The position numbers and the translations under genes are program-made. Under the pieces are notes generated by a model. It was given only the letters and a program-made list of their open reading frames with translations, was not told where the DNA came from and did no database searches. From Lachnospiraceae bacterium (GTDB lineage Bacteria > Bacillota > Clostridia > Lachnospirales > Lachnospiraceae), in the NCBI GenBank assembly GCA_017546025.1, contig JAFYYS010000035.1, positions 27,809 to 91,808 on the forward strand: a stretch of DNA of 64,000 nt. The letters run 5' to 3'. Positions 10,145 to 43,662 of the stretch are shown here, piece after piece (position 1 is the stretch's first letter; each line of letters begins with the position of its first letter).

Positions 10145-10864
10145 ATGAGGATTGCTATTGCGGATGACAGCAGGGAGGACATGGAACACCTGCGGGCGGA
10201 ACTCTATAAAGTGTTCAATGAGTTCGGCTATACGATGGACAATGTGAGGGCCTTCCCGAGCGGAGAGAGCATCCTCAATGACTTTCAGCCCGGGATGTAC
10301 GATATCATTTTCCTCGACATTTTCATGGGAGGCATCACGGGCGTAGTGGCAGCGGAGAAGATCCGCGAGATGGACGACAAGGTCAGCATCATCTTCACGA
10401 CGACGTGCAACGATTATGCCAACCAGAGCTACCGCCTTCGAGCGTCGTATTATCTGCTGAAGCCTTTCGGCACCGAAGAGGTGCGGCAGATGATCCGGAT
10501 GATTGACCTGCACCGGTTCGAGGCGGAGCGTACCGTGGAGTTTCCGGACGGAAGCAAGTGCCGGCTTCACGATATCATTTACACGGAATATTCCAACCAC
10601 AAAATCACGATTCACCTGACTGGGGGTCGGACGCACAGCGTCTGGATGTCCCAGACGGAGATGGAGGACCTGTTGTGCGGGCTCGGGGACTTTTTCACCT
10701 GCACGAAGGGTATTCTGATCAGTCTCGAGCAGATTCGCGATCTGGACGAAGACTGTGTGAAATTATGTAACGGGGATGTTGTGCCGGTGAGCCGCGCAAG
10801 ACGTCCGGAACTGAAGAAAGCGCACGCGGAGTTTGCCATTCGCAGTCTCCGAAACAGAGGATAG
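10145..10864 (+). CDS. LytTR-family response regulator
   Basis: The receiver domain (MRIAIADD...IIFLDIFMGG) is followed by a C-terminal LytTR-like DNA-binding region (...IIYTEYSNHKITIHL...VPVSRARRPELKK). Confidence 0.9.
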   Translation: MRIAIADDSREDMEHLRAELYKVFNEFGYTMDNVRAFPSGESILNDFQPGMYDIIFLDIFMGGITGVVAAEKIREMDDKVSIIFTTTCNDYANQSYRLRASYYLLKPFGTEEVRQMIRMIDLHRFEAERTVEFPDGSKCRLHDIIYTEYSNHKITIHLTGGRTHSVWMSQTEMEDLLCGLGDFFTCTKGILISLEQIRDLDEDCVKLCNGDVVPVSRARRPELKKAHAEFAIRSLRNRG

Positions 10865-10867
10865 TTT

Positions 10868-12445: not shown

Positions 12446-12552
12446 TAGCATCGTTGGAAAATCTTTTTTCACTTCAAGGAAACTGTTATGATGATGCGAG
12501 GTTCCGAGAAGAACTAACCATTAAACCATTAAACCATTGGGAGGAACAAACA

Positions 12553-21016: not shown

Positions 21017-21655
21017 ATGATTAAGATTGTCTTTTTCGATATGGACGGGACGCTGATTGATACCGAGAAGTATTTCCGCCGGTTCTGGCCGAAGGCCGCT
21101 GCGGCATTCGGGTACGAGATGAGTGACGAGCAGGCGCTTTCCATGCGAAGCCTCGGCAGACCGTTCGCCCCGGCGCAGCTGAAAGCGTGGTTCGGTCCCG
21201 AAACCGATTACCAGGCGATTCGCGCCAAGCGTACCGAGATGATGGAGGCGCAGTTTGCCATTGACGGGCTTCAGTTAAGGCCCGGCGCCGTGGAAATCCT
21301 GACGGAGCTGAAGGAACGCGGGATTCCGGCGGTTGTCGTGACGGCTTCGCCGATTGAACGGACGGAGCGGTATCTGACGGAGGTCGGGATACTGCAGTAT
21401 TTCGACCGGATCATCAGCGCCACACAGGTTGCGGAGGGGAAGCCCTCCCCGGATGTGTATCTTTTGGCAAGTAAAGAAGTGGGATTTCCCACGGAAGAGT
21501 GCCTCGCGGTTGAGGATTCCCCGAACGGCGTATTATCAGCCTACCGCGCGGGGTGCAAGGTTGTCATGGTGCCCGACCAGACTCCGGCGGACGAGATGCG
21601 GCCGTATCTTGACGGTGTGGCGGAGACACTTGCGGACCTTGGAAAGTTTGTTTAG
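21017..21655 (+). CDS. HAD-superfamily hydrolase (beta-phosphoglucomutase-like subfamily IA)
   Basis: FFDMDGTLIDTE motif I, VVTAS motif II, and EDSPNG motif IV. Confidence 0.85.
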   Translation: MIKIVFFDMDGTLIDTEKYFRRFWPKAAAAFGYEMSDEQALSMRSLGRPFAPAQLKAWFGPETDYQAIRAKRTEMMEAQFAIDGLQLRPGAVEILTELKERGIPAVVVTASPIERTERYLTEVGILQYFDRIISATQVAEGKPSPDVYLLASKEVGFPTEECLAVEDSPNGVLSAYRAGCKVVMVPDQTPADEMRPYLDGVAETLADLGKFV

Positions 21656-21689
21656 GAAATATAAGAAAAGTGAAGTGAGGGGAAATTTT

Positions 21690-22943
21690 ATGGCGGAGTC
21701 AGGAAAGAAGAAATTCATTATGAAGCGCAAGCCGTTCATCATTACCATCATTGTGGTGTGCGTTGTGTTGGCAATTGCGGAGGTGCTGCTGTTAACCAAG
21801 GTGTTCTCCAAGAAGAACAATGAAAAGAAGAATGATAAGCAGTCCAATCAGCAGTCCGGGCAGCAGTCCGGGACGCCTGCACCGGCGGGGCCTGAAGATA
21901 TGAACAATGTGTGGAAGGTTGCAAGGGTGTTTGTTCAGTATGAGGGCTGTGAGAAAGAACTGTACCTGGAATACGAGTACGATGAATCGGGAAGAGAAAA
22001 GCAGATGACCGGTTCCTATAATCAGGAAAAATGCTACCAGAATGTGAAGAAACAGGATGGCGTATTTGTTACGGGATACATCGCCCTTTGCGGGGAAGAC
22101 GGCAATCTTGTCGACAATCTTGCCGCGCTGATGAGCGGATACAAAAAAGATTACTCCTTTGCGGAAAAGTTTGATACACGCGGAAATCTGATTGAAGTTT
22201 CAAAGGTGTATAACCAAACAGAAGAGGTATACGAAAGATGGGAATTTGAATTCGATGATCAGGACCGGGCCGTTAAAATGAAGGATTATTCGTTTATGAA
22301 CGGCGGTCTGGAGCTTTTTCGGTATTTCATCTTTCAATATGATTCCTTTGACCGTGTGAAATGTATGGAAGAGTACTGGACACAAGACGGCGACAGAATC
22401 ACGTCCAAGCTGGAATACGATTATGCAAACAACAAAATGATTCGTACTTTTTATGAAGGAAACTACTATGGTGATGGGGAAGAAACATATTGTGTCGCAG
22501 AGTTTTCCGGAAAGCAGAGAGAGACACTGAAGGACTATCGCGGAGAGAAGTGCGTAGGCGATACACGCTATCTTGTTTTGAAAGGCAATTTCCCTTCCGA
22601 CTCGTATTTTATTGACAATGTGTTTCCCTTTGGGAGAAAATTCTGTACACTCACCGCTGAGCTTACCTATCTTGACGGAAGCATGAGGAAAGAGGATTCC
22701 TGGGAGTATGATCAGCAAGGCCGCCCGATTGGCTTCTCGGAGTACGGTAATGAAATCTCTCTTTCCTATGATGAGCAGGGGTATTGCATAAGCGCCGACG
22801 TGACGACAAACGGAGCGCATAACAATTATGAGTACTCCTTCGACGAGCGCGGGAATCTGACAGAAGTCAGTTTTACGGAAGAACTTGAAGGCGGCGAAAA
22901 AGTGACATACTTTTATGAATGGGTCAAGCTTCCGAACCGTTAA
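21690..22943 (+). CDS. N-terminally membrane-anchored protein with YD/RHS-like short repeats
   Basis: A TM (PFIITIIVVCVVLAIAEVLLL) and a Q/S/N-rich linker are followed by repeated YxYDxxGR/N-like motifs (YEYDESGREK, FDTRGNLIEV, YDQQGRPIGF, FDERGNLTEV). ATG 21690 follows GTGAGGGGA. Confidence 0.7.
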   Translation: MAESGKKKFIMKRKPFIITIIVVCVVLAIAEVLLLTKVFSKKNNEKKNDKQSNQQSGQQSGTPAPAGPEDMNNVWKVARVFVQYEGCEKELYLEYEYDESGREKQMTGSYNQEKCYQNVKKQDGVFVTGYIALCGEDGNLVDNLAALMSGYKKDYSFAEKFDTRGNLIEVSKVYNQTEEVYERWEFEFDDQDRAVKMKDYSFMNGGLELFRYFIFQYDSFDRVKCMEEYWTQDGDRITSKLEYDYANNKMIRTFYEGNYYGDGEETYCVAEFSGKQRETLKDYRGEKCVGDTRYLVLKGNFPSDSYFIDNVFPFGRKFCTLTAELTYLDGSMRKEDSWEYDQQGRPIGFSEYGNEISLSYDEQGYCISADVTTNGAHNNYEYSFDERGNLTEVSFTEELEGGEKVTYFYEWVKLPNR

Positions 22944-24131: not shown

Positions 24132-24215
24132 GCAGTTGTGGCGGAATTGGCATACGCGCATGATTCAGGTTCATGTCCATGTACTTGGGTGTGGGTTCAA
24201 GTCCCATCAACTGCA
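24132..24215 (+). tRNA. tRNA-Leu (anticodon CAG), type II with long variable arm
   Basis: Acceptor GCAGTTG/CAACTGC, anticodon stem CATGA/TCATG with loop TTCAGGT, T-arm GTGGG-TTCAAGT-CCCAT, discriminator A. No CCA is encoded. Confidence 0.9.
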
Positions 24216-25385: not shown

Positions 25386-26192
25386 TTAGTTCAGCTGTGA
25401 ACCGCAGTACTCGCAGCAGCCGCCCTGGGGAACGGTCTTTGCACCGCAGAACGGGCAGATTACGGGCTCAACGGGAGCGGCCGGCTGAGGTGCCGGGGCA
25501 GCGTTACGTGCGCCGAAATCAGTAGGAGCAGCGTTCTTCATTTGATCAACGGCATCCTTGATCTGCGTGCCGATGTTCAGACAGTCATAGTATTCTTTTG
25601 TGCGAAGGTTGGTGCCGATGCCGGTCGTGTGGATGGTCCAGCCGTTCGGATTGGCGGTCATCTGCTGCTCGCCGGTCTTGATGTAGCCGCTCGAAACACC
25701 GAATTCCATCTCGTCGAAGTAAGGATTGCTGACGCGAATCGTTGCCTTCAGATTGTAGGAATACTCATATCTGGGCGGATTGTAGCTGACAAGACGTCCG
25801 TTAGCGTCCTTCTGCTTCAGCTCGTTGCGGCTTTCCTGAATGTCCAGGTTGCAGCCGAGCGCCTGTGAAAAATCAAGCACATCGGGATTGGCCTTCACCA
25901 GATCGGTGGCCGAGGTTACCATAAACTTACGCGCGTTGTCATCAATCAACAGCTTGGTGTACTTACCGAGCGTTCTCGTGACATGAAAAGCGGCAACGGC
26001 AGCCTTGTTCTGCTCGCGGTAAGCAAGCTGCTGCTCGATGTCAGCCTTGGTGCTGTGACGTCTCTCGCTGAACCACGGAGAAAGCTTCGAAGCGCAGTCC
26101 TTGCACATGTTGCCGTCCTCGAGCTTCCGGTTGCCGAGAAGACCGATTTTGTTTCCGCAGAAATCACAGAATTTCTTATCAAAGAGTCCCAT
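25386..26192 (-). CDS. Zinc-ribbon protein of unknown function
   Basis: N-terminal CDFCGN...CKDC and C-terminal CPFCGAKT...CCEYCG Cys pairs. ATG 26192 follows AAGGAAGG. The upstream ATG at 26234 lacks an RBS. Confidence 0.7.
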   Translation of the reverse strand: MGLFDKKFCDFCGNKIGLLGNRKLEDGNMCKDCASKLSPWFSERRHSTKADIEQQLAYREQNKAAVAAFHVTRTLGKYTKLLIDDNARKFMVTSATDLVKANPDVLDFSQALGCNLDIQESRNELKQKDANGRLVSYNPPRYEYSYNLKATIRVSNPYFDEMEFGVSSGYIKTGEQQMTANPNGWTIHTTGIGTNLRTKEYYDCLNIGTQIKDAVDQMKNAAPTDFGARNAAPAPQPAAPVEPVICPFCGAKTVPQGGCCEYCGSQLN

Positions 26193-26361
26193 GGAAATGA
26201 CCTTCCTTTTCTTTTGATTCTCTAATTGTACCATAGAACACCTGCCGATTCAAGAAATAACCGAGGCGGAAGTTACGTTGTCTTTCGCGGTGAAATCTGC
26301 TATAATGGGACCGAAGTCTGACGAAAAAGTCCCTTCGGGACTATGGATGAGGAAACGCGTA

Positions 26362-27675: not shown

Positions 27676-27760
27676 AGATAGCTGACACCCCTTGTAAGCG
27701 TCCTCATTTTCCGATATAATAATTCTGTTAAGAACCATACGGTTGAAGGGAGCAAAGACG

Positions 27761-28333
27761 ATGGAAGAGCGCAGAAAGAATAATTCCGTGAGACAGTTTT
27801 GTATCGTGACGTTGTTTTGGCTTTTGGCAGCAGGGCTTTCCTTTGTGTGCAGTGAGATTCAGGTCTCCGAAATCCGTGATACCGGCGAATCCCACACGGG
27901 TTCATTTCTGAACGGAACGCTCTATTCCTATAATCTCACCAATTACATCATCGGAGCGGTGCTGTTCTTCGGAATCTTCATGCTTTTGTGGTTCTTCATC
28001 ATGAGGGGGCGTTTCCCGAAGATCCGCAGATGCCACATCATCGGGCAGGTCGGCTGCATTCTGATTACGGTGGCAGGACTGTTCGGCATATTTGCCGCGA
28101 CGGTATATACCGATATGAATGCAACCGGTATCTTCAGCGGAATCAGGGAGGAATTCCTGGAAGCGCTGACGCTGATCGGCTGGGTGCTCTTTGCGTTTTT
28201 GTTCACCCTTGCGGGGACGGTCGGCGGCTTTTCGAGAGAGAAGAAGTTCGGCCGCGAGGGCAGGCCGCATCCGCACGGTCACAGACCGCCGGAGGGCCCT
28301 CACAAGCCTGACGGAGAGAAGAAGTTTAAATAA
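27761..28333 (+). CDS. Hypothetical polytopic membrane protein with a His/Pro/Lys-rich tail
   Basis: 4 predicted TM helices. ATG 27761 lies 8 nt after GAAGGGAG. Tail: GRPHPHGHRPPEGPHKPDGEKKFK. Confidence 0.6.
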   Translation: MEERRKNNSVRQFCIVTLFWLLAAGLSFVCSEIQVSEIRDTGESHTGSFLNGTLYSYNLTNYIIGAVLFFGIFMLLWFFIMRGRFPKIRRCHIIGQVGCILITVAGLFGIFAATVYTDMNATGIFSGIREEFLEALTLIGWVLFAFLFTLAGTVGGFSREKKFGREGRPHPHGHRPPEGPHKPDGEKKFK

Positions 28334-28340
28334 TCAATTC

Positions 28341-28380
28341 CACCCTTCAAATCAGTAAAACCGGTTTGAAGGGTGTTGTT
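28341..28380 (+). terminator. Terminator preceding the six-paralog array
   Basis: CACCCTTCAA / TTGAAGGGTG stem followed by TTGTT. Confidence 0.6.
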
Positions 28381-28443
28381 ATGATTTGAATGTTAAATCG
28401 AGGTAAAATCGGCCTCTATACTGTGGTAAATGTGACTTACAAA

Positions 28444-28452
28444 TGCTATACT
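28444..28452 (+). promoter_or_regulatory. Extended -10 (TGcTATACT), candidate promoter of the six-paralog operon
   Basis: Read directly. The 9-mer CTATACTGT occurs twice, 30 nt apart (28416 and 28446). Confidence 0.35.
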
Positions 28453-28523
28453 GTCATGCAAATGAAAGACTTGAAAAAGTGCCTTCAGGCACCATGCGGG
28501 GGAAGGAATCCGGTTAAGAAACC

Positions 28524-29507
28524 ATGATGACGGATGAACAGAAAATCGAACAGATTGAGGAATTTCGAACAAAAGCTTTAAGTAAAAAAAGATTCCTCGG
28601 GATTTGGATTTTTTTAGTTATCGTGACGGTGCTTGGCCTGACCGCTTTCCTGGCAGACAGAATGGGGGATGAGGGTTTTCCTGCCATTATGCTTTTATGG
28701 ATTCTGGGAGCCCTGAGTGTTACGGGATTGGGTATGGCAATTCACAATCTGAAAGGTGATTATTCGGAAGAGATAAAATGTTACCTGGTTGAGACCGCCG
28801 CAGAGGGGATGTTCGACAGTTTTTCCTACAGGCCGGAAGAAGGGTTCCTGGTGGATGATCTGTGCAATGCAGATATGATGAAAATCCGTGCCTGCAAAAC
28901 CGACGATATGATGGTCGGAGAATATAATGACGTGACGTTTGTCCATGGGGATGTAACGATTAATGCCGATAGTGAATCCCTCGGAGCGCCGTTTTACGGA
29001 ACCTGGACAGTATACTCGTTTTTGAAGCCGTTCACATCAGATTTACAGGTTACAACGGTAGAGATGCTGTCTCACAGCCGGGTAAACCGCACATTTTTCA
29101 CGAAGAAAGATGAGAAGAGGCATCTGTTTTTGACGGGAGACACGGAGTTTGACGACTTGTTCGCATGCTCCGGACAGGACGAGCAGGAAGCGATGACACT
29201 TCTGACGCCGGCAGTCAGAAAACGGCTGATTCGCATCTATCAGGACACCGGACTTCCGATGATTATCGGCTGGAAGGACAAGGAGCTGCATTTCATTACC
29301 GGAAATGCGCTTGCCCCGTTTGGTTATGAACTGGAAGCAACGCTTGATTATGAGGCCATGCTTGCGGAAACCAGAAGAAAACTCTATCTGATCAGAAGAG
29401 TTATAGAAGAACTGATCATGAGCCGCAGCGTCTTTTCGGAGTATGCGCTCGAGGAGTACTCGATGCCTGTTGATACAGAGCACGAAGAAGGATTGAGAAG
29501 ACAGTGA
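28524..29507 (+). CDS. Two-TM membrane protein, DUF3137-like, paralog 1 of 6
   Basis: - TM hairpin: FLGIWIFLVIVTVLGLTAFLA / FPAIMLLWILGALSVTGLGMAI.
- Shared blocks: CYLVETAAEGMFDSFSY, GEYNDVTF, GTWTVYSF, TGDTEFDDLFACSGQDEQEAMTLLTP.
- The DUF3137 label is from memory of the family consensus and is not verified. Confidence 0.85.
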   Translation: MMTDEQKIEQIEEFRTKALSKKRFLGIWIFLVIVTVLGLTAFLADRMGDEGFPAIMLLWILGALSVTGLGMAIHNLKGDYSEEIKCYLVETAAEGMFDSFSYRPEEGFLVDDLCNADMMKIRACKTDDMMVGEYNDVTFVHGDVTINADSESLGAPFYGTWTVYSFLKPFTSDLQVTTVEMLSHSRVNRTFFTKKDEKRHLFLTGDTEFDDLFACSGQDEQEAMTLLTPAVRKRLIRIYQDTGLPMIIGWKDKELHFITGNALAPFGYELEATLDYEAMLAETRRKLYLIRRVIEELIMSRSVFSEYALEEYSMPVDTEHEEGLRRQ

Positions 29508-30478
29508 GAACGGAAGAAGATATCAAACTGATTCAGAAAAGGGCGAAAAGAAGAAATATCATCTATTGGGGATGGATTGTCGCTCTGATTATCGCCGGCG
29601 CATGCATAACCGGTGCGTTGAACGATGCATTGGAGTGGGACCGCGCTTTTCCGTGGATTATGGTTCTTTGGGTTTTGTTTACCATGGTGATTCTGGGACT
29701 CGGTGTTGCGTTATTCGACCTTTCTTCGTCGTTTTCGAAGGATATCAAGAAGTATCTTGTGGAAACTGCTTCGGATGGGATGTTTGACAGCTTCTCCTAT
29801 AATCCGGACGAGGGTTTCAGCGTAGATGTGTTAGACAAAGCGGATATGATGAGGGGAGTCTATTCCTGCAGCACCGACGACATGATGCGCGGAGAATATA
29901 ATGATGTGAAGTTCTGCCGCGGGGATGTCAGCATTAATACGGGAAGCACCGTATCCAGTACGTTTCACGGATCGTGGACGCTGTATTCCTTTATGAAACC
30001 GTTCATTTCGGATCTGCAGGTCACGACGCAGGAGATGGTGGCGCACAGCCGTGTGAACCGCACAATCTTTACGAGAAAAGAAGAAAAGAGACATCTGTTC
30101 AAAACCGGTGATCCGGAGTTCGACAGCATATTTGTGTGTTCCGGACAGGATGAACAGGAGGCTATGACACTGCTGACGCCGACAGTCAGAAAACGGCTGA
30201 TCCGACTCTATCAGGATACCGGGCTTCCGATGATTGTCGGATGGAAGGACAACGAGCTGCATTTCATCACCGGAAATGCGCTTGCCCCGTACGGTTACAG
30301 AATCCATTCGAAGATGGATCTTGAGGCCATGGTCGCAGATACGAGAAGAAAGCTTTATCTGACCAGAAGAGTCATTGAAGAGCTGATTATGAGCCGCAGC
30401 GTCTTTTCGGAGTATGCGCTTGAGCAGTATTCGATGCCTGTTGATGCGGGACACGGAGAGGAATTAAGAAGACAGTGA
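29504..30478 (+). CDS. Two-TM membrane protein, DUF3137-like, paralog 2 of 6
   Basis: Its GTG start overlaps the paralog-1 stop (GTGA). It has the same architecture and, by eye, is roughly three-quarters identical to paralog 1 over the C-terminal ~200 aa. Confidence 0.85.
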   Translation: MRTEEDIKLIQKRAKRRNIIYWGWIVALIIAGACITGALNDALEWDRAFPWIMVLWVLFTMVILGLGVALFDLSSSFSKDIKKYLVETASDGMFDSFSYNPDEGFSVDVLDKADMMRGVYSCSTDDMMRGEYNDVKFCRGDVSINTGSTVSSTFHGSWTLYSFMKPFISDLQVTTQEMVAHSRVNRTIFTRKEEKRHLFKTGDPEFDSIFVCSGQDEQEAMTLLTPTVRKRLIRLYQDTGLPMIVGWKDNELHFITGNALAPYGYRIHSKMDLEAMVADTRRKLYLTRRVIEELIMSRSVFSEYALEQYSMPVDAGHGEELRRQ

Positions 30479-31464
30479 AGAATGATAAGACAGTAAGAAC
30501 TCTGGAAGAAATCAGAGGGCTGCAGAAAACCACCAGAGAAAACAGAAGGGTTTTGTTTTATGTCCTGCTGCTGTTGATACCCATGGATTTGGTTTTCACT
30601 TATTTGGCAGTGTCTTCGGGGGATATTGCGGGAACCTGTGTCCCGTTGATTGCTTTTTATATAATGACAGCAGCCACATTCTATGCCTGGGTAAGAGTTC
30701 CCCGGGAACTATACAGGGAATACAAGACATATCTTGTCAATAGCGCTGCAGACGGCCTGTTCGACGAGTACCAATACTTTCCGGACGGCTGTTTCGACCG
30801 GGAGGTGCTTGAAGAAACAAACCTGCTGGACCTTGAGGGTAAAAAGTTCGAGAGCAATGATTTCTTTGAGGGAACCTATCAGGGCGTCCGGTTTGCAAGA
30901 GCCGATATCGAAATCTATAATGGCCTTACGGGACGGTTTAAAAAGCAGTACTTCGGAAACTGGAACGTGTTCTCATTTTCCAAAGCCTCACCCCGTAAGA
31001 TTTGGATTTCGACAAGAAAACTGTTCACCCATTCGCGGCTGAGGACAGAGTTTATTCAGTTTTCGAACAACGGAGAAAACGGGATTACAACCGGCGATGA
31101 TTACTTTGACAGCCTGTTCTTCTGCGGCTGCGAGGATGAGCAGGCAGCCCGTGAACTCCTGACACCGCAGCTCATGAAGATTCTGTGCGGGTTTTATAAT
31201 AAGAACGGCTATCCGTTCATCGTGGCCTGGGTTGACGGCCGCCTGCACGTCATTGTAGAGGACAAAAAGGATACCGTGCATCCGTCCGTTGATATGGATG
31301 TCAACCCCGTGCTGGAGATTGAGAAAGCACGGGAAGATTTGAAATTTGTGTGCGACATCGTTGATGAACTGGTCATCGGTGACAAAGTATTCTCCGAATA
31401 TGCCATGTACGGTCAGGCCGTGGATTCGGAGCCTGTGATTGGGAAAGGGTTGAGAAGACAGTGA
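30475..31464 (+). CDS. Two-TM membrane protein, DUF3137-like, paralog 3 of 6
   Basis: GTGA start/stop overlap. Blocks: TYLVNSAADGLFDEYQY, GTYQGVRFARADI, GNWNVFSF, TGDDYFDSLFFCGCEDEQAARELLTP. Confidence 0.85.
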   Translation: MKNDKTVRTLEEIRGLQKTTRENRRVLFYVLLLLIPMDLVFTYLAVSSGDIAGTCVPLIAFYIMTAATFYAWVRVPRELYREYKTYLVNSAADGLFDEYQYFPDGCFDREVLEETNLLDLEGKKFESNDFFEGTYQGVRFARADIEIYNGLTGRFKKQYFGNWNVFSFSKASPRKIWISTRKLFTHSRLRTEFIQFSNNGENGITTGDDYFDSLFFCGCEDEQAARELLTPQLMKILCGFYNKNGYPFIVAWVDGRLHVIVEDKKDTVHPSVDMDVNPVLEIEKAREDLKFVCDIVDELVIGDKVFSEYAMYGQAVDSEPVIGKGLRRQ

Positions 31465-32576
31465 CTACGGAACAGGAACTCGAGAAGCGGCGAAAAACGG
31501 CAAGGCTTGGCAGATACGGCGGCACTGTATTACAATTGGCCGGAATCGTTTTGATGATGCTGGGACTCTTATATCTGTTTTTTGATTTCGCCGATTGGGA
31601 CCTTACAGCGAAAACGTGTCTTGTGCTGGCGGCGGCTGTCATTGCCATGATAGGGGGATATCTGCTTGAGAATCGTACACAAAAGAAGTACGAAAAGGAA
31701 TACAAGACCTACGTGATAGGCAGGGCCGCTCTGGGATTGTTTGATGAGTACGAGTTTCTGCCGGAGTGGGGATTCCCCAAGAAAGAAGTTAAGTCGAAAG
31801 GTCTGATTCGGATTAAGTACGGCTACAGAAGTGACACGCTTCTTAAGGGACAATACCATGATGTCGGATTTGCCCGCGCTGATTTCTCTATGAGACAGAA
31901 TCGGATTTCCGATATGAGAGTCAAAGGTTACTGGACCATCTTCACGTTTCCGAAGCCTTTTAAGAGCGACCTGCAGGTGTCCTGCGGGTTCATGCAGCAG
32001 GAGAGCGGAATCCGGCAGGGTCTTTTCGTTCCGAAAAAAGAGCGTCGCCACATCATTACGACGGGCAACGAAGAATTCGACAGGGAATTCACCTGCTCCG
32101 GCCAGGACACGGAAGAGGCTTTGTCTCTGCTGACGCCGGCGGTACGCAGAAAGCTGCTGTCGATGCGCTATATGAGGCGCAACGCCTTCGTCATGGGCTG
32201 GGTAAACCAGGAGCTTCATATGATTGTCATCAACGGAACGGACACGGCTCCGGCACCGGCCAAGGGAAAGCTTGATCTCGGTCAGGCGCTGCACCAGACG
32301 CAGGAAGAACTTCGCGTCATCTGTGAGATTATCGATGACATGATGATGAGCCGTAGCATTTTCGCCGATTATGTCATGGCGGAGATGGAAAATGTGATGA
32401 CTTCGCCACATGAAATCCCTGACGGCACCCTTCAGGAAGAAGACTACGACATTGTTCCGGCGAGCGAAGACTACGATATAACTTCGGTGAACGAAGACTA
32501 CGACATTGCTCCGGTAAACGAAGACTACGACGTCGATTTGCCGGAGGAAAAATACGAAATGCGTGGGAGTAATTAA
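31461..32576 (+). CDS. Two-TM membrane protein, DUF3137-like, paralog 4 of 6 (with an acidic EDYD repeat tail)
   Basis: GTGA overlap. Blocks: GQYHDVGFARADF, GYWTIFTF, TGNEEFDREFTCSGQDTEEALSLLTP. There is a C-terminal 4 x 9-aa EDYDIxPxx repeat. Confidence 0.85.
   Translation: MTTEQELEKRRKTARLGRYGGTVLQLAGIVLMMLGLLYLFFDFADWDLTAKTCLVLAAAVIAMIGGYLLENRTQKKYEKEYKTYVIGRAALGLFDEYEFLPEWGFPKKEVKSKGLIRIKYGYRSDTLLKGQYHDVGFARADFSMRQNRISDMRVKGYWTIFTFPKPFKSDLQVSCGFMQQESGIRQGLFVPKKERRHIITTGNEEFDREFTCSGQDTEEALSLLTPAVRRKLLSMRYMRRNAFVMGWVNQELHMIVINGTDTAPAPAKGKLDLGQALHQTQEELRVICEIIDDMMMSRSIFADYVMAEMENVMTSPHEIPDGTLQEEDYDIVPASEDYDITSVNEDYDIAPVNEDYDVDLPEEKYEMRGSN
32439..32546 (+). repeat. 4 x 27-nt tandem repeat inside paralog 4 (GAAGACTACGAC...)
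   Basis: Units start at 32439, 32466, 32493 and 32520. They encode EDYDIVPAS / EDYDITSVN / EDYDIAPVN / EDYDVDLPE. Confidence 0.9.
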
Positions 32577-32590
32577 CGAGGAGGAAGAAA

Positions 32591-33502
32591 ATGTATAACA
32601 ACGATTGGGAGCAACTGAACAAGACAAGAAAGCAGCTGGTATTACTCGGCATAATCGGAACGATCCTGCTTGTTGCGGGACTGATTCTGCCGATTGTATT
32701 CATGGCGAAGCATCCGCTTTTCTTTAATCCGTTCATGATTCTTTTCGGCATGGTTCCCGGAGCAATCTGCTGGCTGATTTTCGGCAAAGGCAACTCCGGC
32801 TACCGGAAGGATTACAAGGCGCTTGTGGTGAACCGAGCCGCGACCGGCATGTTTGACGAGTACAGCTACTACGCGGGCATGGGTTTTGATTACCGGGAGA
32901 TTCAGGCCACCGGCATCATGTACATGGGCAACCGGTATAAGAGTGAGGACCTCGTGGAAGGACGCTACAAGGGCGTTCCGTTCCGCCGTGCCGACATGTA
33001 TATCGCACAGCATACCTCGAGCGGTAAGAGCAGCCATACGACCGTATATCTGCGCGGAACGTGGATGATTTTCTCCTACAACAAAGCATTCGTTTCCGAT
33101 GTGCAGGTCATGTCCAAGGCTTTCGGGTTTTCCAATAAGAAGACGAGCCGCCTGTTTACGAGAAGCGGAGACCGCCGTCATAAGCTCGAGACGGAGGACG
33201 TGGAGTTCAACAACATGTTCAACGTGACCTGCCAGAACGATTCCGAAGCATTCTACCTGCTGACGCCCCGCGTCATGCAGATGCTGAAGCTGCTGCAGGC
33301 CGACTTCATGCATCCGTTCATGGTCGGATTTGTCAACAACGCCCTGCATATCGCCGTCAACACCGGCAAGGATTCGATGGAACCGTCGGTTTTCAAGGCA
33401 CTGAAGCCCGAGCTTGAGATTGAAAAGACCCGCCGCGAGCTGAAGGCAATCTGTAACGTCATCGACGCGCTGGCAATTGACCGGGATATTTTCAAGGAGT
33501 AA
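32591..33502 (+). CDS. Two-TM membrane protein, DUF3137-like, paralog 5 of 6
   Basis: ATG after AGGAGG, 14 nt after the paralog-4 stop. Blocks: GRYKGVPFRRADM, GTWMIFSY, TEDVEFNNMFNVTCQNDSEAFYLLTP. Confidence 0.85.
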   Translation: MYNNDWEQLNKTRKQLVLLGIIGTILLVAGLILPIVFMAKHPLFFNPFMILFGMVPGAICWLIFGKGNSGYRKDYKALVVNRAATGMFDEYSYYAGMGFDYREIQATGIMYMGNRYKSEDLVEGRYKGVPFRRADMYIAQHTSSGKSSHTTVYLRGTWMIFSYNKAFVSDVQVMSKAFGFSNKKTSRLFTRSGDRRHKLETEDVEFNNMFNVTCQNDSEAFYLLTPRVMQMLKLLQADFMHPFMVGFVNNALHIAVNTGKDSMEPSVFKALKPELEIEKTRRELKAICNVIDALAIDRDIFKE

Positions 33503-33506
33503 ACGG

Positions 33507-34535
33507 TTGAAAGACTATTCGATGATAACGCCCGAGGCATTGACCGAGGAGGCGCGGAAAATTGCAAAACACTCGGACAGAGCCCCGTTCATTGCGCTTG
33601 GGCAGCTCACCCTGCTGGGAATTCCGTTCCTGCTGTTGTGCATGGGAGTGCTGCCTCCAATCCCGTTTGTCGTGGCATTTGCCATCGCATTAATCCTTGT
33701 CGGCGTGACTGCCATATTCGGGCATGACCGGCAGAAGGAGTACGATGAGCGGCAGAAGGAACTGGTTGTTGCGTTCAAGTCGCTGGTTGTGAACCATGCC
33801 GCGCAGGAGCTGTTCCATCATTATTCCTATGACATGGAAAATGGCATCGCAGAGGAAGACATTCCGCTCAACGAAGTGCTGCCGTATTCCTACTTCGGAA
33901 GAAGCACGAATCTGCTGACCGGCTTCTACCGGGGTGTCGAATTCCGGCGCGCCGATCTTGAGGCAAGTGCAGCCTCGACGCATGTCAACTTTTATTCGAC
34001 GAACCGTGTCTTTCTCGGACAGTATATTGATTTCCCGTGTCCTGTGAAGTTTTCCTCGACGCTTTATATCTACACAAAGGACATGCTTGACGATATCGAG
34101 CGGAAGACCTTCCTGTATTCCGGGAACACGCGCGGGGAGATGTATTATGAAACGGGTGATGAGGCGTTTGATAAGAAATTCCGTTGCCTGACTACCGATC
34201 AAACTGAGGCGGAGACGCTTCTTACTCCGGAGTATGTCAGAAGCATTGTGAAGCTTTCAAACCTGATTAAGGATTGGTTTGTGATTGGCTTCAAAGAAGG
34301 CAGAATCTTTCTTTTGATTGACACCGGCACGGACCATCTGGAGCCGCCGAAATACCTCGGTTATATCGACAAAATGGACATGGATTACGAGATGGAGCGC
34401 GCGGTGAAAACGTTACAAACGGTGTGCGATGCCATTGACCGGCTGGCCCGTCCGAGCGAGGAGAAAACCCCGCCTGAGACAAATGTGATCGATGAACTTG
34501 AAAGCTACTGGAAAGAGGGAACACCGACCGTCTGA
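33507..34535 (+). CDS. Two-TM membrane protein, DUF3137-like, paralog 6 of 6 (most divergent)
   Basis: Blocks: GFYRGVEFRRADL and TGDEAFDKKFRCLTTDQTEAETLLTP. The start is uncertain: TTG 33507 lies 7 nt after AAGGAG, and ATG 33522 is the alternative. Confidence 0.75.
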   Translation: MKDYSMITPEALTEEARKIAKHSDRAPFIALGQLTLLGIPFLLLCMGVLPPIPFVVAFAIALILVGVTAIFGHDRQKEYDERQKELVVAFKSLVVNHAAQELFHHYSYDMENGIAEEDIPLNEVLPYSYFGRSTNLLTGFYRGVEFRRADLEASAASTHVNFYSTNRVFLGQYIDFPCPVKFSSTLYIYTKDMLDDIERKTFLYSGNTRGEMYYETGDEAFDKKFRCLTTDQTEAETLLTPEYVRSIVKLSNLIKDWFVIGFKEGRIFLLIDTGTDHLEPPKYLGYIDKMDMDYEMERAVKTLQTVCDAIDRLARPSEEKTPPETNVIDELESYWKEGTPTV

Positions 34536-34565: not shown

Positions 34566-34594
34566 TTGACAAGCGGCGGGAAAGGTCTTATAAT
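34566..34594 (+). promoter_or_regulatory. Consensus sigma-A promoter (TTGACA-17 nt-TATAAT)
   Basis: TTGACA at 34566-34571, a 17-nt spacer, and TATAAT at 34589-34594. Confidence 0.8.
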
Positions 34595-34600
34595 GTGCCT

Positions 34601-34886
34601 AATTTTACAACTTCATATCGTTCAAAGGCTGTGACGAAGACGGTCTCGGGAACGCATTTTCAGAGAGCCGGTGGTTGGTGTGAACCGGTATTGCAGAACG
34701 AATCGACCTATCCCTTCCGAGCTGAAGGTCTGAACCCCTTGTGGAAAGTAAGAACTTCCGTGATTGCCGCGTCAAGGCATAGGATTTGTTGGAATCCGAA
34801 GAGTGGCGTACAGTGTACGCAAGTTGAGTGGTACCGCGGGTGAAAGGCTCGTCTCAAACGTTCGTTTGGGGCGGGCTTATTTTATT
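34601..34886 (+). promoter_or_regulatory. T-box riboswitch leader (tRNA-sensing transcription attenuator)
   Basis: - Stem I has a GA/K-turn (GUGACGAAG...CUUCCGAGC), an AGAGAG bulge (34662-34667) and a distal loop GGUUGGUGUGA.
- The T-box sequence AGUUGAGUGGUACCGCGGG lies at 34822-34840, with a UGGU bulge.
- The antiterminator is GAG[UGGUACC]GCGGG...CUCGUCUC.
- It competes with a 13-bp terminator (34847-34876) followed by UUAUUUUAUU. Confidence 0.85.
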
Positions 34887-34946: not shown

Positions 34947-37211
34947 ATGGGAGACATGGATCTGAAGCTTAAGGAAGTCGCCGCACGTATCCGCGAGATG
35001 CGTGAGATCGCAGGCTTTACCGAAGGCGAGATGGCAGACAAGACGGATGTCAGCGTGGAAGAGTATGTGGCTTATGAGGCCGGCGAAACGGATATGCCGT
35101 TTACGTTCATTCATAAGTGCTCGCTCGCATTTGACGTCGAAATGAGCGCTTTGCTTGAAGGCCATACGGCAAAGCTTACCAGCTACACCGTAACGAGAAA
35201 GGGCGAAGGTCAGATCACTTCCGAAGAGGAAGGCATCCTGATCAAGAACCTTGCTTCCAACTTTAAGAAGAGACTCGGTGAGCCCTACTGGGTTCGCTAT
35301 GAATACTCCGCCGAGCAGCAGAAGAAGCCGATTCATCTGACCAAGCACAGCGGTCAGGAATTCGATATCGTCATGAAGGGCTGCCTGAAGGTTCAGGTCG
35401 GTGAGCACACCGAAATCCTGCACGAGGGCGACAGCATCTTCTACAACAGCTCGACGCCGCACGGCATGATTGCCATCAACGATCAGGACTGTACCTTCAT
35501 CGCAGTCGTACTGCCCGGTGAGGATGTCGGCGAGAAGGAAATCGTCGATACGCTTGTGGAAGGCCGTACCGCGAAGAAGAGCTTCGTCTGTGACAAATTC
35601 ATCAAGACTGTCGAGGACGAAAAGGGCCGCCTGAAGTCCATCGATTTCGTAAACGAAGAGAAGTTCAACTTCGCCTATGATGTTGTTGACGCCATCGCGA
35701 AGAAGAATCCCGAGAAGCTTGCGATGATTCATCTGGACCGCGACAAGAACGAGAGACGCTTCACATTCCTTGACATGAGTAAGAAGAGCGGCCAGGCCGC
35801 AAACTACTTCAAGTCCCTGGGCATCGAGCCCGGCGACCGCGTCATGCTTGTATTGAAGCGCCATTACCAGTTCTGGATCAGCATGCTTGCGCTTCATAAG
35901 ATCGGCGCAATCGCAATCCCGGCTACTTATCAGCTTCAGGAGCATGACTTTGAGTACCGTTTCAAGTCCGCAGGCGTTAAGGCAATCGTTTGTACCGGCG
36001 ACGGTGATACCGCCAACCAGGTTGATCTTGCGGCACCGCGCTGTGAGACACTGATCCACAAGATCTGTGTCGGCGCTCCGAGAGAAGGCTGGCGCAACTT
36101 CGATGAAGAGTATGTGATGTACAGCTCGCATTTCGACCGCGTCGAGAACAGCCCGTGCGGTTCCGACCGTTTCATCATGTTCTTCACCTCCGGCACGACC
36201 GGTTATCCGAAGATTGCGTGCCATTCCTACAAGTACGCGCTCGGTCATTATGTAACCGCCAAGTACTGGCATCAGGTTGAGCCTGACGGCCTGCACCTGA
36301 CCATTTCCGATACCGGCTGGGGTAAAGCGCTTTGGGGCAAGCTGTACGGCCAGTGGCTGTGCGAAGCACCCGTTTTCGTATATGACTTCGACCGCTTCCA
36401 TGCAGAGGACATCCTGCCGCTGTTTGCACAGTACCATATCACGACGTTCTGCGCACCGCCCACGATGTACCGCATGCTGATCAAGGAAGACATCAGCAAA
36501 TACGACCTCAGCTCGATTGTGCATGCAACGACCGCCGGTGAGGCCCTTAACCCCGAGGTTTACAACGTCTTCAAGGAGAAGACCGGTCTCCGCATCCACG
36601 AGGGCTTCGGTCAGACCGAGACAACGCTTGTCATCGGTAACCTGTACGGCGAGAAGCGCAAGCTCGGATCCATGGGTAAGCCTACGCCGCAGTATCATGT
36701 CGACATCCTCGATCCGGACGGCAAGCCCGTACCGGTCGGCGAGAACGGCGAGATCTGCATCTACACAAACGACAAGACGCCCTGCGGACTGTTCCGCGGC
36801 TACTATAACGATCCCGAGCGCACGAAGGAAGCGTGGCATGACGGCATCTATCATACCGGCGACGTCGCGTGGAAGGACGAGGACGGCTTCTACTGGTATG
36901 TCGGCCGTATCGACGACGTCATCAAGTCGTCCGGCTACCGTATCGGACCGTTCGAAATCGAAAGCGTCATCATGGAACTTCCGTATGTGCTTGAGTGCGG
37001 TGTCAGCGCCGCCCCCGACCCGATCCGCGGCCAGGTTGTAAAGGCAAGCATCGTATTGACAAAGGGTACACAGCCCTCCGATGAGCTCAAGAAGGAAATC
37101 CAGGATTACGTTAAGAAGCACACAGCACCTTACAAGTACCCGCGTATCGTTGTCTTCATGGATGAACTTCCGAAGACCATCAGCGGCAAGATTCAGAGAA
37201 ACAAACTGTAA
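34947..37211 (+). CDS. Fusion protein: XRE-type HTH plus cupin domain (N-terminal ~190 aa) fused to an AMP-forming acyl-CoA synthetase (ACSM/MbcS-like)
   Basis: - N-terminus: KEVAARIREMREIAGFTEGEMADKTDVSVEEYVAYEAG (HTH), then a cupin (HSGQEFDIVMKG...GDSIFYNSSTPHG).
- The remainder has FFTSGTTGYPK (A3), TAGEALN, EGFGQTET, YHTGD and SSGYRIGPFEIES adenylation motifs.
- It is one uninterrupted ORF. ATG 34947 follows AAAGGAGAG. Confidence 0.85.
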   Translation: MGDMDLKLKEVAARIREMREIAGFTEGEMADKTDVSVEEYVAYEAGETDMPFTFIHKCSLAFDVEMSALLEGHTAKLTSYTVTRKGEGQITSEEEGILIKNLASNFKKRLGEPYWVRYEYSAEQQKKPIHLTKHSGQEFDIVMKGCLKVQVGEHTEILHEGDSIFYNSSTPHGMIAINDQDCTFIAVVLPGEDVGEKEIVDTLVEGRTAKKSFVCDKFIKTVEDEKGRLKSIDFVNEEKFNFAYDVVDAIAKKNPEKLAMIHLDRDKNERRFTFLDMSKKSGQAANYFKSLGIEPGDRVMLVLKRHYQFWISMLALHKIGAIAIPATYQLQEHDFEYRFKSAGVKAIVCTGDGDTANQVDLAAPRCETLIHKICVGAPREGWRNFDEEYVMYSSHFDRVENSPCGSDRFIMFFTSGTTGYPKIACHSYKYALGHYVTAKYWHQVEPDGLHLTISDTGWGKALWGKLYGQWLCEAPVFVYDFDRFHAEDILPLFAQYHITTFCAPPTMYRMLIKEDISKYDLSSIVHATTAGEALNPEVYNVFKEKTGLRIHEGFGQTETTLVIGNLYGEKRKLGSMGKPTPQYHVDILDPDGKPVPVGENGEICIYTNDKTPCGLFRGYYNDPERTKEAWHDGIYHTGDVAWKDEDGFYWYVGRIDDVIKSSGYRIGPFEIESVIMELPYVLECGVSAAPDPIRGQVVKASIVLTKGTQPSDELKKEIQDYVKKHTAPYKYPRIVVFMDELPKTISGKIQRNKL

Positions 37212-38581
37212 TGAAGCATCCGAATTATGACATTCCCGGGATTCCGGAAGGATACGAGGTATTCTTCCGGATGACCCGTAAGTGCAGACTCGAAACGGTT
37301 GATGAAGCAGACGAAGACGAAGATTCCATGAAAGACTGGAAGTATGACCGTCTCCACAACTACATCAAACAGCGTGACGGAAAAGGAAACGTATATGTTT
37401 ATCGCATCCGGGAGGACAATACCTGTACCTGCGAGCGTTGGTTCATGAAGGACGGCGCAAGGTACTGCGAGCCCGGCGCTGTGTTTGATCCCGGTATCGA
37501 GATTGTGTTTCAGGAAACGGACCGGGAAAGCTGGGAGTATGATGAGCGCGGCAACTGCGTGACATTTATCACAAAAGGGAAAGACCGCTGGCTGAACACC
37601 TATGATGCAAAGAACCGGGTCGTTTCGGAAAAAAGGTATTTTTCCGACGGGCTTTTATGGGCCGATAAGGGATATGCCTACAATGAGGACGGCACCCTGC
37701 GTGAGTATTATGAGGACATGCTCGATATTCAGAACGGGCACGGCGATTATCATACGATGCATTACAAAAAGACGGTTCCCGAATACGACAGTACGGGCCG
37801 GACGGTTTCCGAGCATTCGTATGACCGGGAAGGCAAGCTGATCGGGCAGATGTATTGGGAGCCGGGCGGGAAGGTTCAGATCTCGACAAAGAACCAGTTC
37901 GAATATTGGCAGGTCCGCTCAAGAATTGAGCATGACGACGAAGGAAGAGTCATCTCGGACGACTTTGAGCTGAACGGAAAGCCGCAGTCAAGGACCGAAT
38001 ACGAGTACCGTGACGACGGCAGCTACACCGAGCGCAGGTACATTGCAATCATGGAGAGAGACAATGAGCTGCTGCTCCGTGAAGAAAAGACGTTTGATAA
38101 GGCCGGCAGGAGGACCGCCTGGATTGAATACGGTTACAACAGTAAGAGAGTATACGAAGCCTTTTATCAGGAGTATGACGAAGAAGGCAATCTGACCAGA
38201 ACGGTTCGTAAGACAATAACCGGGACAAAGCCGCAAAAGGAAGAAACCTATATCGTTCTTTTCGGCACGGTCGGAGGCTTCAAACACGACCGTCTGCGGG
38301 TTAAGGAATACGAGATCCGGGACGGGAAGGCAGGAAACGTCACCGAATACAAGTATTTCTTCCCGGATGAGAACACCGTGATGCAGTTCAGCATCAAAAA
38401 CGGCGAAGTCCGGTTCGTGGAAATCTATGAATATGACAGCTACGGAAACCTGCTTGCCCGGTACTCGGCGAGTGGCTCGGGGAGGTACGGCAAAGCCTTC
38501 GAATACACGCCTTTTGTTGCGCCCAAGGGGCGGTTCACGAAAGAGGACCGCGATGAAGAGCACCACAAGGTGGTGAGTTAA
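37211..38581 (+). CDS. Cytoplasmic protein with YD/RHS-like repeats (no signal peptide or TM)
   Basis: Its start overlaps the upstream stop (TAATG). Repeats: WEYDERGNCV, YDAKNRVV, YNEDGTLR, YDSTGRTV, YDREGKLI, HDDEGRVI, YDEEGNLT, YDSYGNLL. Confidence 0.75.
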   Translation: MKHPNYDIPGIPEGYEVFFRMTRKCRLETVDEADEDEDSMKDWKYDRLHNYIKQRDGKGNVYVYRIREDNTCTCERWFMKDGARYCEPGAVFDPGIEIVFQETDRESWEYDERGNCVTFITKGKDRWLNTYDAKNRVVSEKRYFSDGLLWADKGYAYNEDGTLREYYEDMLDIQNGHGDYHTMHYKKTVPEYDSTGRTVSEHSYDREGKLIGQMYWEPGGKVQISTKNQFEYWQVRSRIEHDDEGRVISDDFELNGKPQSRTEYEYRDDGSYTERRYIAIMERDNELLLREEKTFDKAGRRTAWIEYGYNSKRVYEAFYQEYDEEGNLTRTVRKTITGTKPQKEETYIVLFGTVGGFKHDRLRVKEYEIRDGKAGNVTEYKYFFPDENTVMQFSIKNGEVRFVEIYEYDSYGNLLARYSASGSGRYGKAFEYTPFVAPKGRFTKEDRDEEHHKVVS

Positions 38582-42739: not shown

Positions 42740-42975
42740 TTCATCACCCCCTGACGATATGTTACCATAGCATTTTCCTAAGGTCAATCAGGGGAGGGCA
42801 GTACTGTGTGGATTGTTAAGAGAATGTTAAATCAACGGTAAATGAGATTGACACAGGCGGGGCGTTGTGGTAATATCTCTTTCAAGCACAGAGACAACAT
42901 ATCGATATGAACGGCAGCGGTTAATGCCCTGCCGAAACGGTGCAGCGTGGTTCCTGCGGAAAGGAGCAATGAAAC

Positions 42976-43662
42976 ATGTCAAGCTTTGCAGCAAACAGAA
43001 GAGAAGAGAGATTAAACGCAGTTTACAGCGTTTCGGAACTGATCACAGAGCAGAAATACAACATTGTATTATGCGGCGCAGTTTTGTGGGGATTAATTAT
43101 CAATTTCATTTTATGTATCACGGTCGGTAATGTTTACGAATATATCAATCCGATCCCGTTCTTCATCGGGTATTTCGTATTGGTAATTGCCGGAAGCCTT
43201 ATCGCATCGAAATCGGACAATGCCATGGTTTCCTTCATCGGATACAACATGATTGTACTTCCGATCGGACTGGTTGTCTCGACCGTCGTGGAGCTTTACG
43301 GCGGTGTGCAGTCGACCGTCGTGGCCGAGGCCTTCCTGATTACGATGTGCGTGACCGCAGTGATGGCGCTGTTCGCCGTCACGAAGCCCGATCTTGTGGC
43401 AACGATCGGCGGGATACTGTTTCCGTGCCTGATCGGTCTGATTGTCGCGGAAGTGGTCGTGCTGCTGCTCGGCTATAATAACAACATATTCTCCTGGATC
43501 GGAGCGGCGCTGTTCAGCCTTTATATCGCTTATGATATTTACCGCTCGCAGCAGTTCACCAAGACGGTGGACAATGCCGTGGACTGTGCGGTGGACATCT
43601 ACCTCGACATCACCAACCTCTTCCTGAGAATCCTGAGAATTGTTGCAAACAGCGACGACTGA
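42976..43662 (+). CDS. BAX inhibitor-1/YccA-family membrane protein (divergent paralog)
   Basis: Same architecture, with a C-terminal VDCAVDIYLDITNLFLRILRI motif. Confidence 0.85.
   Translation: MSSFAANRREERLNAVYSVSELITEQKYNIVLCGAVLWGLIINFILCITVGNVYEYINPIPFFIGYFVLVIAGSLIASKSDNAMVSFIGYNMIVLPIGLVVSTVVELYGGVQSTVVAEAFLITMCVTAVMALFAVTKPDLVATIGGILFPCLIGLIVAEVVVLLLGYNNNIFSWIGAALFSLYIAYDIYRSQQFTKTVDNAVDCAVDIYLDITNLFLRILRIVANSDD

Follow-up and report, generated by a model that had tools for sequence, protein, structure and literature searches.

The DNA considered here is a 64-kb window (the whole stretch that was analysed) from a Lachnospiraceae genome, contig JAFYYS010000035.1, which its best homologues and the related loci assign to a rumen bacterium. 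Our subject is a set of six open reading frames (ORFs) on its + strand, P1 to P6, which span 28524–34535 and are all paralogues of the DUF3137 family. We read them, tentatively, as an operon that grew from a smaller module in which DUF3137 genes accompany a LemA gene. The whole-protein scores against the Pfam model PF11335 (DUF3137) are 44.8, 45.5, 65.6, 52.6, 95.5 and 63.8 bits for P1 to P6, respectively, all above the gathering score of 26.1 bits that is the cutoff for membership. A preliminary description of this DNA had proposed six same-strand paralogues sharing one architecture and had matched them to DUF3137. The ORFs, the Pfam search, which places all six in this single family, and the membrane hairpin found in every protein bear out both statements.

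P1 (28524–29507, 327 amino acids (aa)) is followed by P2 (29504–30478, 324 aa), whose GTG start lies inside a 4-nucleotide (nt) overlap with the P1 stop, and then by P3 (30475–31464, 329 aa), P4 (31461–32576, 371 aa), P5 (32591–33502, 303 aa), which has the Shine–Dalgarno sequence GAGGAGG, and P6 (33507–34535), the most divergent of the set. Read from its first TTG, the P6 ORF extends over 33477–34535 (352 aa). The likely start is however the TTG at 33507, 4 nt past the P5 stop, giving 342 aa, since an AAGGAG Shine–Dalgarno sequence lies 7 nt upstream of it and the same start is used in the gene calls of L001–L004 (related loci are numbered with the prefix L; L001 comes from the species of the window). 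The spacing between consecutive genes is −4, −4, −4, +14 and +4 nt. The sequence AGACAGTGA occurs three times in the window (expected 0.3), each time at one of the three 4-nt overlaps, so that the spacing and the identical overlap sequence reported earlier are both correct. The full conserved junction, found by sequence comparison, is 15 nt long, TTRAGAAGACAGTGA, and carries the stop/start overlap at 29493–29507, 30464–30478 and 31450–31464 on the + strand; a purine-rich stretch resembling a Shine–Dalgarno sequence lies 11 nt upstream of each junction GTG. An NTGA overlap is retained in the arrays of L035 and L037 with GTG, TTG or ATG as the start codon, and this conservation across species despite differing start codons supports functional coupling of translation through the overlaps, which is plausible.

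P1 and P2 are 65% identical overall, and 76% identical in nucleotides over the 3′ 730 nt; the value of about 75% given for them before applies to the soluble domain only (~74%). All remaining pairs of paralogues are 21–31% identical. P6 had been called barely alignable, which proved too pessimistic: it is 23–28% identical to the other copies, with BLASTP E-values from 1e-12 to 1e-26. The conserved blocks listed in the preliminary description are present in the alignment of the six proteins, which has 18 invariant columns (P1 numbering: K85, A92, F97, G132, Y134, V137, F139, D143, G159, T204, F209, F213, A223, L226, L227, T228, P229 and L287).

Every protein of the array has a charged N-terminal segment, two hydrophobic helices joined by a short, mostly acidic loop, and a soluble domain of ~220 aa. 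Two hydrophobic 19-mers fall within the first 75 residues in all six. Summed over the six proteins, the N-termini hold 35 lysine and arginine residues, the loops 4, and the 20 residues that follow the second transmembrane (TM) helix 24. Under the positive-inside rule this distribution predicts a hairpin with both ends inside (N-in/C-in) and a cytoplasmic soluble domain. P4 differs in having an acidic C-terminal tail of 9-aa EDYDIxPVN-like repeats, encoded by a DNA repeat at 32439–32531 (period 27, 3.4 copies).

Operon boundaries, promoter and LemA partner

The unit is bounded on its 5′ side by a hairpin resembling an intrinsic terminator (28341–28375, + strand), which ends the upstream gene (27743–28333) for a protein with four TM helices (4-TM). 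The hairpin has a folding energy of −19.9 kcal/mol (z = −3.9, 200 shuffles), is followed by the U-rich tract UUGUUAUGAUUU and keeps its stem in L001, L035 and L037, with a variable loop. At the 3′ boundary lies a promoter (34566–34594) that matches the sigma-70 consensus TTGACA-17-TATAAT at 12/12 positions. The extended −10 element of the array itself, TGCTATACT (28444–28452, + strand), is invariant in the window, L001, L035 and L037. All three elements had been recognised in the preliminary description, and they stand on the evidence of folding, conservation and the 12/12 consensus match. The leader upstream of P1 had no match in Rfam and folds no more stably than shuffled sequence (z = −0.1). 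As a separate observation, CTATACTGT is present twice, 30 nt apart (28416–28424 and 28446–28454), creating two TATACT boxes of which only the downstream one, a part of TGCTATACT, is conserved in other species.

The family to which the array belongs is large. A profile search of 1.84 billion representative proteins gave 9,937 clusters (at 50% identity) with E ≤ 1e-3, and the 150 best family representatives are mostly 280–340 aa in length and match over their full length. The census of gene neighbourhoods that had been proposed in the preliminary description covered 30 species-level loci, retrieved by peptide patterns resembling P5, and a few individual look-ups; it is biased towards P5-like genes and does not therefore establish frequencies across bacteria. 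Clustering of the neighbours in the 30 loci identified a single recurrent partner, LemA (PF04011 by Pfam), which is directly adjacent and on the same strand in 19 of the 30 species loci (tblastn) and in 3/3 more distant contexts (22/33). Tandem copies also emerged from the census, with at least two DUF3137 genes within 10 kb in 18/30 loci, and the family is usually arranged as a LemA gene with one or two DUF3137 genes. A tblastn search with six LemA proteins found no LemA anywhere in the 64-kb window (best E = 0.33). The description of the array as self-contained is thus right for this lineage and not for the family, which usually sits beside LemA, as in the 22/33 other contexts. In three canonical loci (L011, L017 and L019) a divergent extra DUF3137 gene lies upstream of the promoter, ~0.1–2.5 kb upstream of LemA, in the order DUF3137, WalR-type promoter (see below), LemA, DUF3137, DUF3137.

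The LemA proteins have a near-absent N-terminus and a single TM helix followed by a K/R-rich stretch, from which their helical domain is predicted to be cytoplasmic. MamQ, involved in magnetosome membrane biogenesis, is the sole member of the LemA family tied to a known cellular process (PMC4902198). The canonical LemA–DUF3137 operon of Bacillota and Mycoplasmatota is itself uncharacterised; its DUF3137 proteins are of the same family and architecture as those of the array, and tandem DUF3137 pairs are already the norm in rumen Lachnospiraceae. The array departs from it in having no LemA within 64 kb, in having six genes where the canonical operon has one or two, with four of the six belonging to a lineage-specific clade, in the 4-nt overlaps that join the genes and in a copy number that varies between strains.

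The upstream region of the array is kept in L035 and L037 though their proteins are only ~50% identical to those of the window. It contains a direct repeat, TGTTAA-ATCGA-GGTAAA (28391–28407, + strand), which is a putative site for a regulator of the OmpR family and has one mismatch to TGTWAH-N5-TGTWAH, the consensus of WalR/YycF/VicR (PMC4168254; bioRxiv 10.1101/2022.04.01.486798). A proximal element, GGTAAAT-N4-CTTAC (28425–28440, + strand), lies over the −35/spacer region and was defined by conserved columns in an ungapped comparison of 16 promoters; its form in other species is a near-palindrome, GGTAAAT-N3-ATTTAC, and it is possibly a third half-site or an operator. The aligned promoters, which come from 16 loci, have the form TGnTATAnT in 16/16 cases, and their distance from the start of the box to the extended −10 is 51–53 nt (53 nt in the window). 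This layout, TGT(T/A)AA-N5-TGT(T/A)AA, then GGTAAAT-N3-5-(A/C)TTAC, then TGnTATAnT, is shared by the LemA operons of rumen Lachnospiraceae and the LemA-less arrays; the array has thus retained the regulatory region of the canonical module.

We searched both strands of 1.34 Mb, comprising the window and related sequence, for exact copies of TGTWAH-N5-TGTWAH. Seventeen of the 23 exact matches, from 15 species, are on the coding strand within 170 nt upstream of these operons, a space that makes up 0.46% of that searched, and two more are a single window site and its L001 copy. The window has 2 exact matches where shuffled sequence has a mean of 0.21. A second promoter of the same design (42814–42876, + strand) has the exact box TGTTAA-GAGAA-TGTTAA at 42814–42830, TTGACA at 42848–42853 and, after 17 nt, a TG-extended TAATAT at 42871–42876, with 54 nt from the box to the extended −10. 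It precedes a gene for a membrane protein of the Bax1-I/YccA family (42976–43662). The matching geometry of the two promoters suggests a small shared regulon, in which the array and the YccA/BI-1-type gene probably have a regulator in common.

The WalR-type promoter is the best functional clue at the locus and had been missed in the preliminary description. From the consensus match we infer that the regulator may be WalR. In the WalR (YycF/VicR) regulon promoters of Bacillota a coding-strand TGTWAH-N5-TGTWAH repeat likewise stands just upstream of the −35 region, and the repeat of the array has the WalR orientation on the coding strand; the array box differs by its one mismatch, and WalR binding is here a prediction from sequence. 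Envelope proteins and hypothetical membrane proteins are over-represented in WalR regulons. In the one regulon study checked, that of WalRK in C. difficile, LemA and DUF3137 are not mentioned.

Copy number, selection and hairpin replacement

The locus can be followed across strains and species by its syntenic flanks, which are upstream a helix-turn-helix (HTH) gene, a GH5 cellulase, DUF4428, DUF218, a 113-aa protein and the 4-TM protein, and downstream the T-box/AMP-binding gene. The number of DUF3137 copies between them is two in L010, three in L009, six in the window, seven in L001, nine in L037 and L038 and ten in L035 (GCA_024693305.1), where one copy is truncated to 174 aa. L005 has at least five, on a truncated contig in which the flanking synteny is not shown. 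The more distant Holdemania, Anaerorhabdus and Mycoplasmatota have one copy each, and in L024 there has been an independent expansion to four copies, followed by LemA.

In a tree of all copies, P3, P4, P5 and P6 each fall into an orthologue group that the window shares with the 9–10-copy arrays. P5 corresponds by orthology to the DUF3137 gene that comes first after LemA in canonical operons, and P6 orthologues occupy the last position in the L001, L005, L035 and L037 arrays. P1 and P2 come from a species-specific duplication, to which L001 adds a third member, and three further groups of the tree are missing from the window. Gene order is not conserved; the P3 orthologue, for example, is second in L037. 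Two features mark the stretch 6910–8874 of L001: a seventh distinct paralogue, 61% identical to P2, stands between P2 and P3, and the P3 orthologue is split by a frameshift (73 + 261 aa). The same split is found in L004, which was assembled independently from a different sample, whereas the L001-type hairpin allele of P3 is intact in L002 and L003.

P5 evolves slowly, being 88% identical to its L037 orthologue with a ratio of non-synonymous to synonymous divergence (omega) of 0.03–0.06. The other copies are 46–56% identical to their orthologues, with a non-synonymous divergence (dN) 5–7 times that of P5 and an omega of ~0.2–0.25. Purifying selection acts on all copies, and synonymous sites are saturated between species (synonymous divergence (dS) 1.2–2.4). 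From these comparisons the array is old, yet still gaining and losing copies, since orthologue groups extend across species, copy number varies and gene order is not conserved. The preliminary description had called it an old, maintained array rather than a recent amplification. Its age stands, given the P3–P6 orthologues in the 9–10-copy arrays and the purifying selection, but the array is not static, with 2–10 copies and with extra, frameshifted and truncated copies in relatives.

These data bear on two explanations that differ from an expanded LemA–DUF3137 module. One, also suggested in the preliminary description, is an obligate hetero-oligomer, in which the six paralogues would form one membrane complex of fixed stoichiometry and would be translationally coupled for this reason. 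The overlaps conserved across species, the P3–P6 groups kept under purifying selection and the long hairpin helices of the P5 model (see below), which could pack together, are in keeping with it. A fixed complex is however hard to reconcile with 6, 7, 9 or 10 copies among strains and species, with the unconserved gene order, with a P3 frameshifted in two independent assemblies and a 174-aa remnant in L035, and with the single copy that suffices in most bacteria, and we regard it as distinctly unlikely. The other explanation is that the extra genes are redundant duplicates, produced by unequal crossing-over at a recombination-prone junction, adding dosage or nothing and slowly decaying. The identical 15-nt junction could be the substrate of such recombination, copy number is polymorphic, some copies are pseudogenised or truncated, and constraint on the accessory copies is relaxed relative to P5. 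Their omega is however ~0.2 and not ~1, the orthologue groups persist across species whose synonymous sites are saturated, and paralogues only 21–31% identical retain all the family-invariant residues, so that simple redundancy has a slim chance of being the right explanation.

Between strains that are otherwise nearly identical, two genes diverge sharply in the hairpin-encoding segment alone. P3 of the window and its counterparts in L001 and L002, which carry the other allele of the segment, differ by 47% in the first 240 nt and by 1.5% elsewhere (Fisher p about 1e-68). Gene 6 of L035 and gene 6 of L037 differ by 32% in the hairpin segment and by 3.2% in the remainder (p about 4e-32). Both replaced genes keep a conserved charged helix at the N-terminus (the first ~56 nt of P3), and their soluble domains are conserved as well. 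Two other genes have a weaker excess of hairpin divergence (p = 0.001–0.005), omega is higher in the hairpin than in the soluble domain, and the P3 frameshift of L001 and L004 falls inside the variable segment. As synonymous divergence is also raised in the hairpin segment, the pattern is that of segment replacement by recombination and not of positive selection driven by point mutation. No donor of the replaced segments was found among the compared loci.

Such replacement would fit an immunity or exclusion repertoire, in which accessory copies would act against toxins that target membranes, bacteriocins or membrane proteins of phages, with recognition by the variable hairpin. The change in copy number, from 2 to 10, by gain and loss at a single site, the raised dN of the accessory copies, the hairpin-only exchange in two genes, with no donor found among the compared loci, the higher omega of the hairpin and the independent four-copy expansion in L024 are all consistent with this, and the pattern resembles the tandem immunity-gene arrays of polymorphic-toxin and bacteriocin loci, which also have tandem paralogues, gain and lose copies, differ in copy number between strains and contain a localised hypervariable segment. 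Unlike those arrays, the DUF3137 genes have no cognate toxin, secretion system or mobile element, and the family has a conserved partner and promoter of housekeeping type. No toxin, bacteriocin or secretion gene adjoins the array, whose position in the chromosome is stable and surrounded by housekeeping genes; most members of the family occur as single copies, and overall omega is well below 1. None of the PADLOC defence models was significant (the best, a CARF model, had E = 0.007 with P2 only), the array proteins had no match in PHROGs, tblastn of P5 gave no match in 50,697 phage records or in 72,556 plasmid records, and the viral contigs of IMG/VR yielded no relatives; a single structural match from viral metagenomes is an uncharacterised protein. 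On these negative searches we rejected an identity as a known defence system, and the immunity or phage-exclusion role suggested in the preliminary description drew no support from them. We consider an immunity repertoire unlikely.

A bolder version joins this idea to the promoter. Interchangeable hairpins on a constant cytoplasmic domain would then be a membrane-level recognition repertoire, diversified by cassette replacement and by gene gain and loss, switched on by a cell-wall-sensing two-component system, and would detect or neutralise membrane-inserting phage proteins, bacteriocins and toxins. Taken as a whole this is a long shot; if true, a ‘housekeeping’ protein associated with LemA would have given rise to a new type of defence linked to the envelope.

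Predicted structure and possible function

The AlphaFold2 model of P5, calculated from a 52-sequence alignment, has a mean predicted local distance difference test (pLDDT) score of 91.9 and a predicted template-modelling (pTM) score of 0.85. It consists of two long helices (2–40 and 47–84), a beta-rich alpha/beta domain and a long terminal helix (273–293). The model of P1 has a pLDDT of 83.6, and its soluble part has the same order of secondary structure as that of P5. Most positions invariant in the family are hydrophobic or structural, and only a few are polar (K85, D143 and T204 in P1 numbering), which suggests that the soluble domain suits a binding or scaffold role better than that of an enzyme.

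In a Foldseek search of the Protein Data Bank (PDB) the P5 model had one significant match, the mycobacterial protein TtfA (6T84; E = 2.2e-4, probability 1.00), with a template-modelling score (TM-score) of 0.63 normalised to TtfA and 9% identity. The structural comparison proposed in the preliminary description has thus produced a match for P5 which the P1 model does not reproduce, and we treat the similarity to TtfA as a lead only. TtfA (Rv0383c/MSMEG_0736, the trehalose-monomycolate transport factor) is essential, is anchored in the membrane by its N-terminus and partners the flippase MmpL3; its solved core is without an obvious lipid pocket. Like the array proteins it combines an N-terminal membrane anchor with a soluble core to which no activity has been assigned, and is linked to envelope biogenesis. 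Each DUF3137 copy could by analogy be an accessory that docks through its membrane segment to a transporter of lipids or envelope precursors, as TtfA does with MmpL3; TtfA has, beside its anchor, a dispensable disordered C-terminal tail, and P4 has its acidic repeat tail. TtfA has however one TM helix in place of the hairpin, is single-copy and essential in mycolate producers, and has no sequence similarity to the array proteins: a profile of 52 family sequences compared with all PDB sequences did not find 6T84 at E ≤ 10, nor did it find any other relative there. It is also outside the top 50 matches of the P1 model, its own mechanism is unknown, and no RND/MmpL gene is found among the annotated neighbours of the array, the related loci or the LemA operons, so that the array lacks the partner of the TtfA system. 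We think a role of this type very improbable.

Other candidates for a known fold or family were set aside. The SLATT (2TM effector) domain model of NCBIfam (NF033634, cutoff 41 bits) scored 11.8 bits with P1 (E = 0.18) and 13.2 bits with P2 (E = 0.07) and had no match to P3–P6; the weak scores probably reflect the generic similarity of TM hairpins. Membership of the Tubby-like/scramblase/LOR group, which was also considered, was dropped, there being no such Pfam match at E ≤ 1 and none in the Foldseek searches of the P5 or P1 model. A search for fusions found ten family members with N-terminal extensions of 40–195 aa and no extra Pfam domain.

The reading that we favour, with a probability of roughly 45%, is that the operon is a lineage-specific expansion of the LemA–DUF3137 module, encoding membrane-anchored adaptors for envelope homeostasis under a cell-wall-sensing two-component regulator. 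The six genes would form one operon that expanded from LemA plus one or two DUF3137 genes and to which LemA is no longer linked. Transcription would start from the extended −10 promoter, with the WalR-consensus-type repeat ~53 nt upstream, and the 4-nt overlaps would couple the translation of successive copies. Each product would sit in the cytoplasmic membrane by its N-in/C-in hairpin and present the ~220-aa alpha/beta domain on the cytoplasmic face, acting as an adaptor or scaffold subunit in membrane and cell-envelope homeostasis. P5 would be the conserved core subunit, and the faster-evolving copies would offer the same cytoplasmic domain on alternative hairpins, for differing partners within the membrane or for mixed oligomers. 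The broader statement that the array belongs to the machinery of membrane and envelope maintenance is probably correct, on the evidence of its conserved promoter and the WalR-type site that this carries.

Several points weigh against the expanded-module reading. As LemA is missing from the window, the logic of the partnership may not apply to the array. Its own box has the single mismatch where the orthologous boxes are exact in 15 other species. Other OmpR-family regulators bind similar repeats, and the PhoP box of B. subtilis, TTAACA, is the reverse complement of the half-site; with the mismatch in the window box and a consensus partly shared in this way, WalR is named as a candidate only. 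That copy number varies and that some copies are decaying speaks against a need for each of them. The Foldseek search of the P1 model gave nothing significant. Finally, the literature searched mentions DUF3137 in only two papers, each time in passing, and gives no function for it.

The proteins are ordinary members of an uncharacterised family, and tandem pairs are common in the clade. Apparently new, in the literature searched, are LemA-less, translationally coupled arrays of 6–10 genes, their evolution as a core with accessory copies, the hairpin-specific replacement, and the conserved WalR-type promoter that they have in common with LemA operons. The preliminary description, which knew of no account of such coupled DUF3137 arrays, agrees with that search, in which none was found. 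DUF3137 is a large family, of about 9,900 clusters when grouped at 50% identity, LemA is widespread too, both are without known function, and the locus offers handles on them: a partner in LemA, predicted cytoplasmic domains for both, a high-confidence model of the fold, a WalR-type promoter that would place the module in an envelope regulon with a YccA/BI-1-type protein, and a natural series of 1–10 copies, organised as a core with accessory genes and showing allelic replacement specific to the hairpin. Should the accessory hairpins prove to be determinants of specificity, bacterial membrane proteins would be seen to diversify in a new way.

Neighbouring features of the window

Downstream of the promoter at 34566 is a T-box leader (34622–34859; Rfam RF00230, 102.7 bits) with its terminator hairpin at 34845–34878. 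The gene under its control (ATG at 34947) encodes an HTH, cupin and AMP-binding (acyl-CoA-synthetase-like) protein, an unusual kind of T-box target. Upstream, the DUF4428 zinc-ribbon gene (25386–26234, − strand) and the gene for the 4-TM protein (196 aa, 27743–28333) are syntenic with the array in L001, L009, L010, L035 and L037, and in L035 and L037 an additional 188-aa gene separates the array from the 4-TM gene. No informative family match was obtained for this additional gene, for the 113-aa protein or for the 4-TM protein.

Faint matches to RHS/YD repeats were seen in ORFs of 414–504 aa at 21429–22940 and 37211–38578 in the window and at 2594–3835 in L037, none with a recognisable toxin domain. 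The 37211 ORF shares an ATGA overlap with the stop of the AMP-binding gene and has no counterpart at the L035 locus. Further upstream, 12454–16938 encodes a 1,494-aa protein that contains Listeria–Bacteroides repeats together with a Big_3 domain; genes for a LytTR response regulator and a GHKL kinase precede it (10145–12199). The gene lies in the sole stretch of the window that is clearly low in guanine plus cytosine (GC) content (43–45% compared with ~53%), and the region may be horizontally acquired DNA for a surface protein. The HTH and GH5 cellulase genes are separated by a tRNA gene (24132–24215; Rfam RF00005, 53.4 bits).

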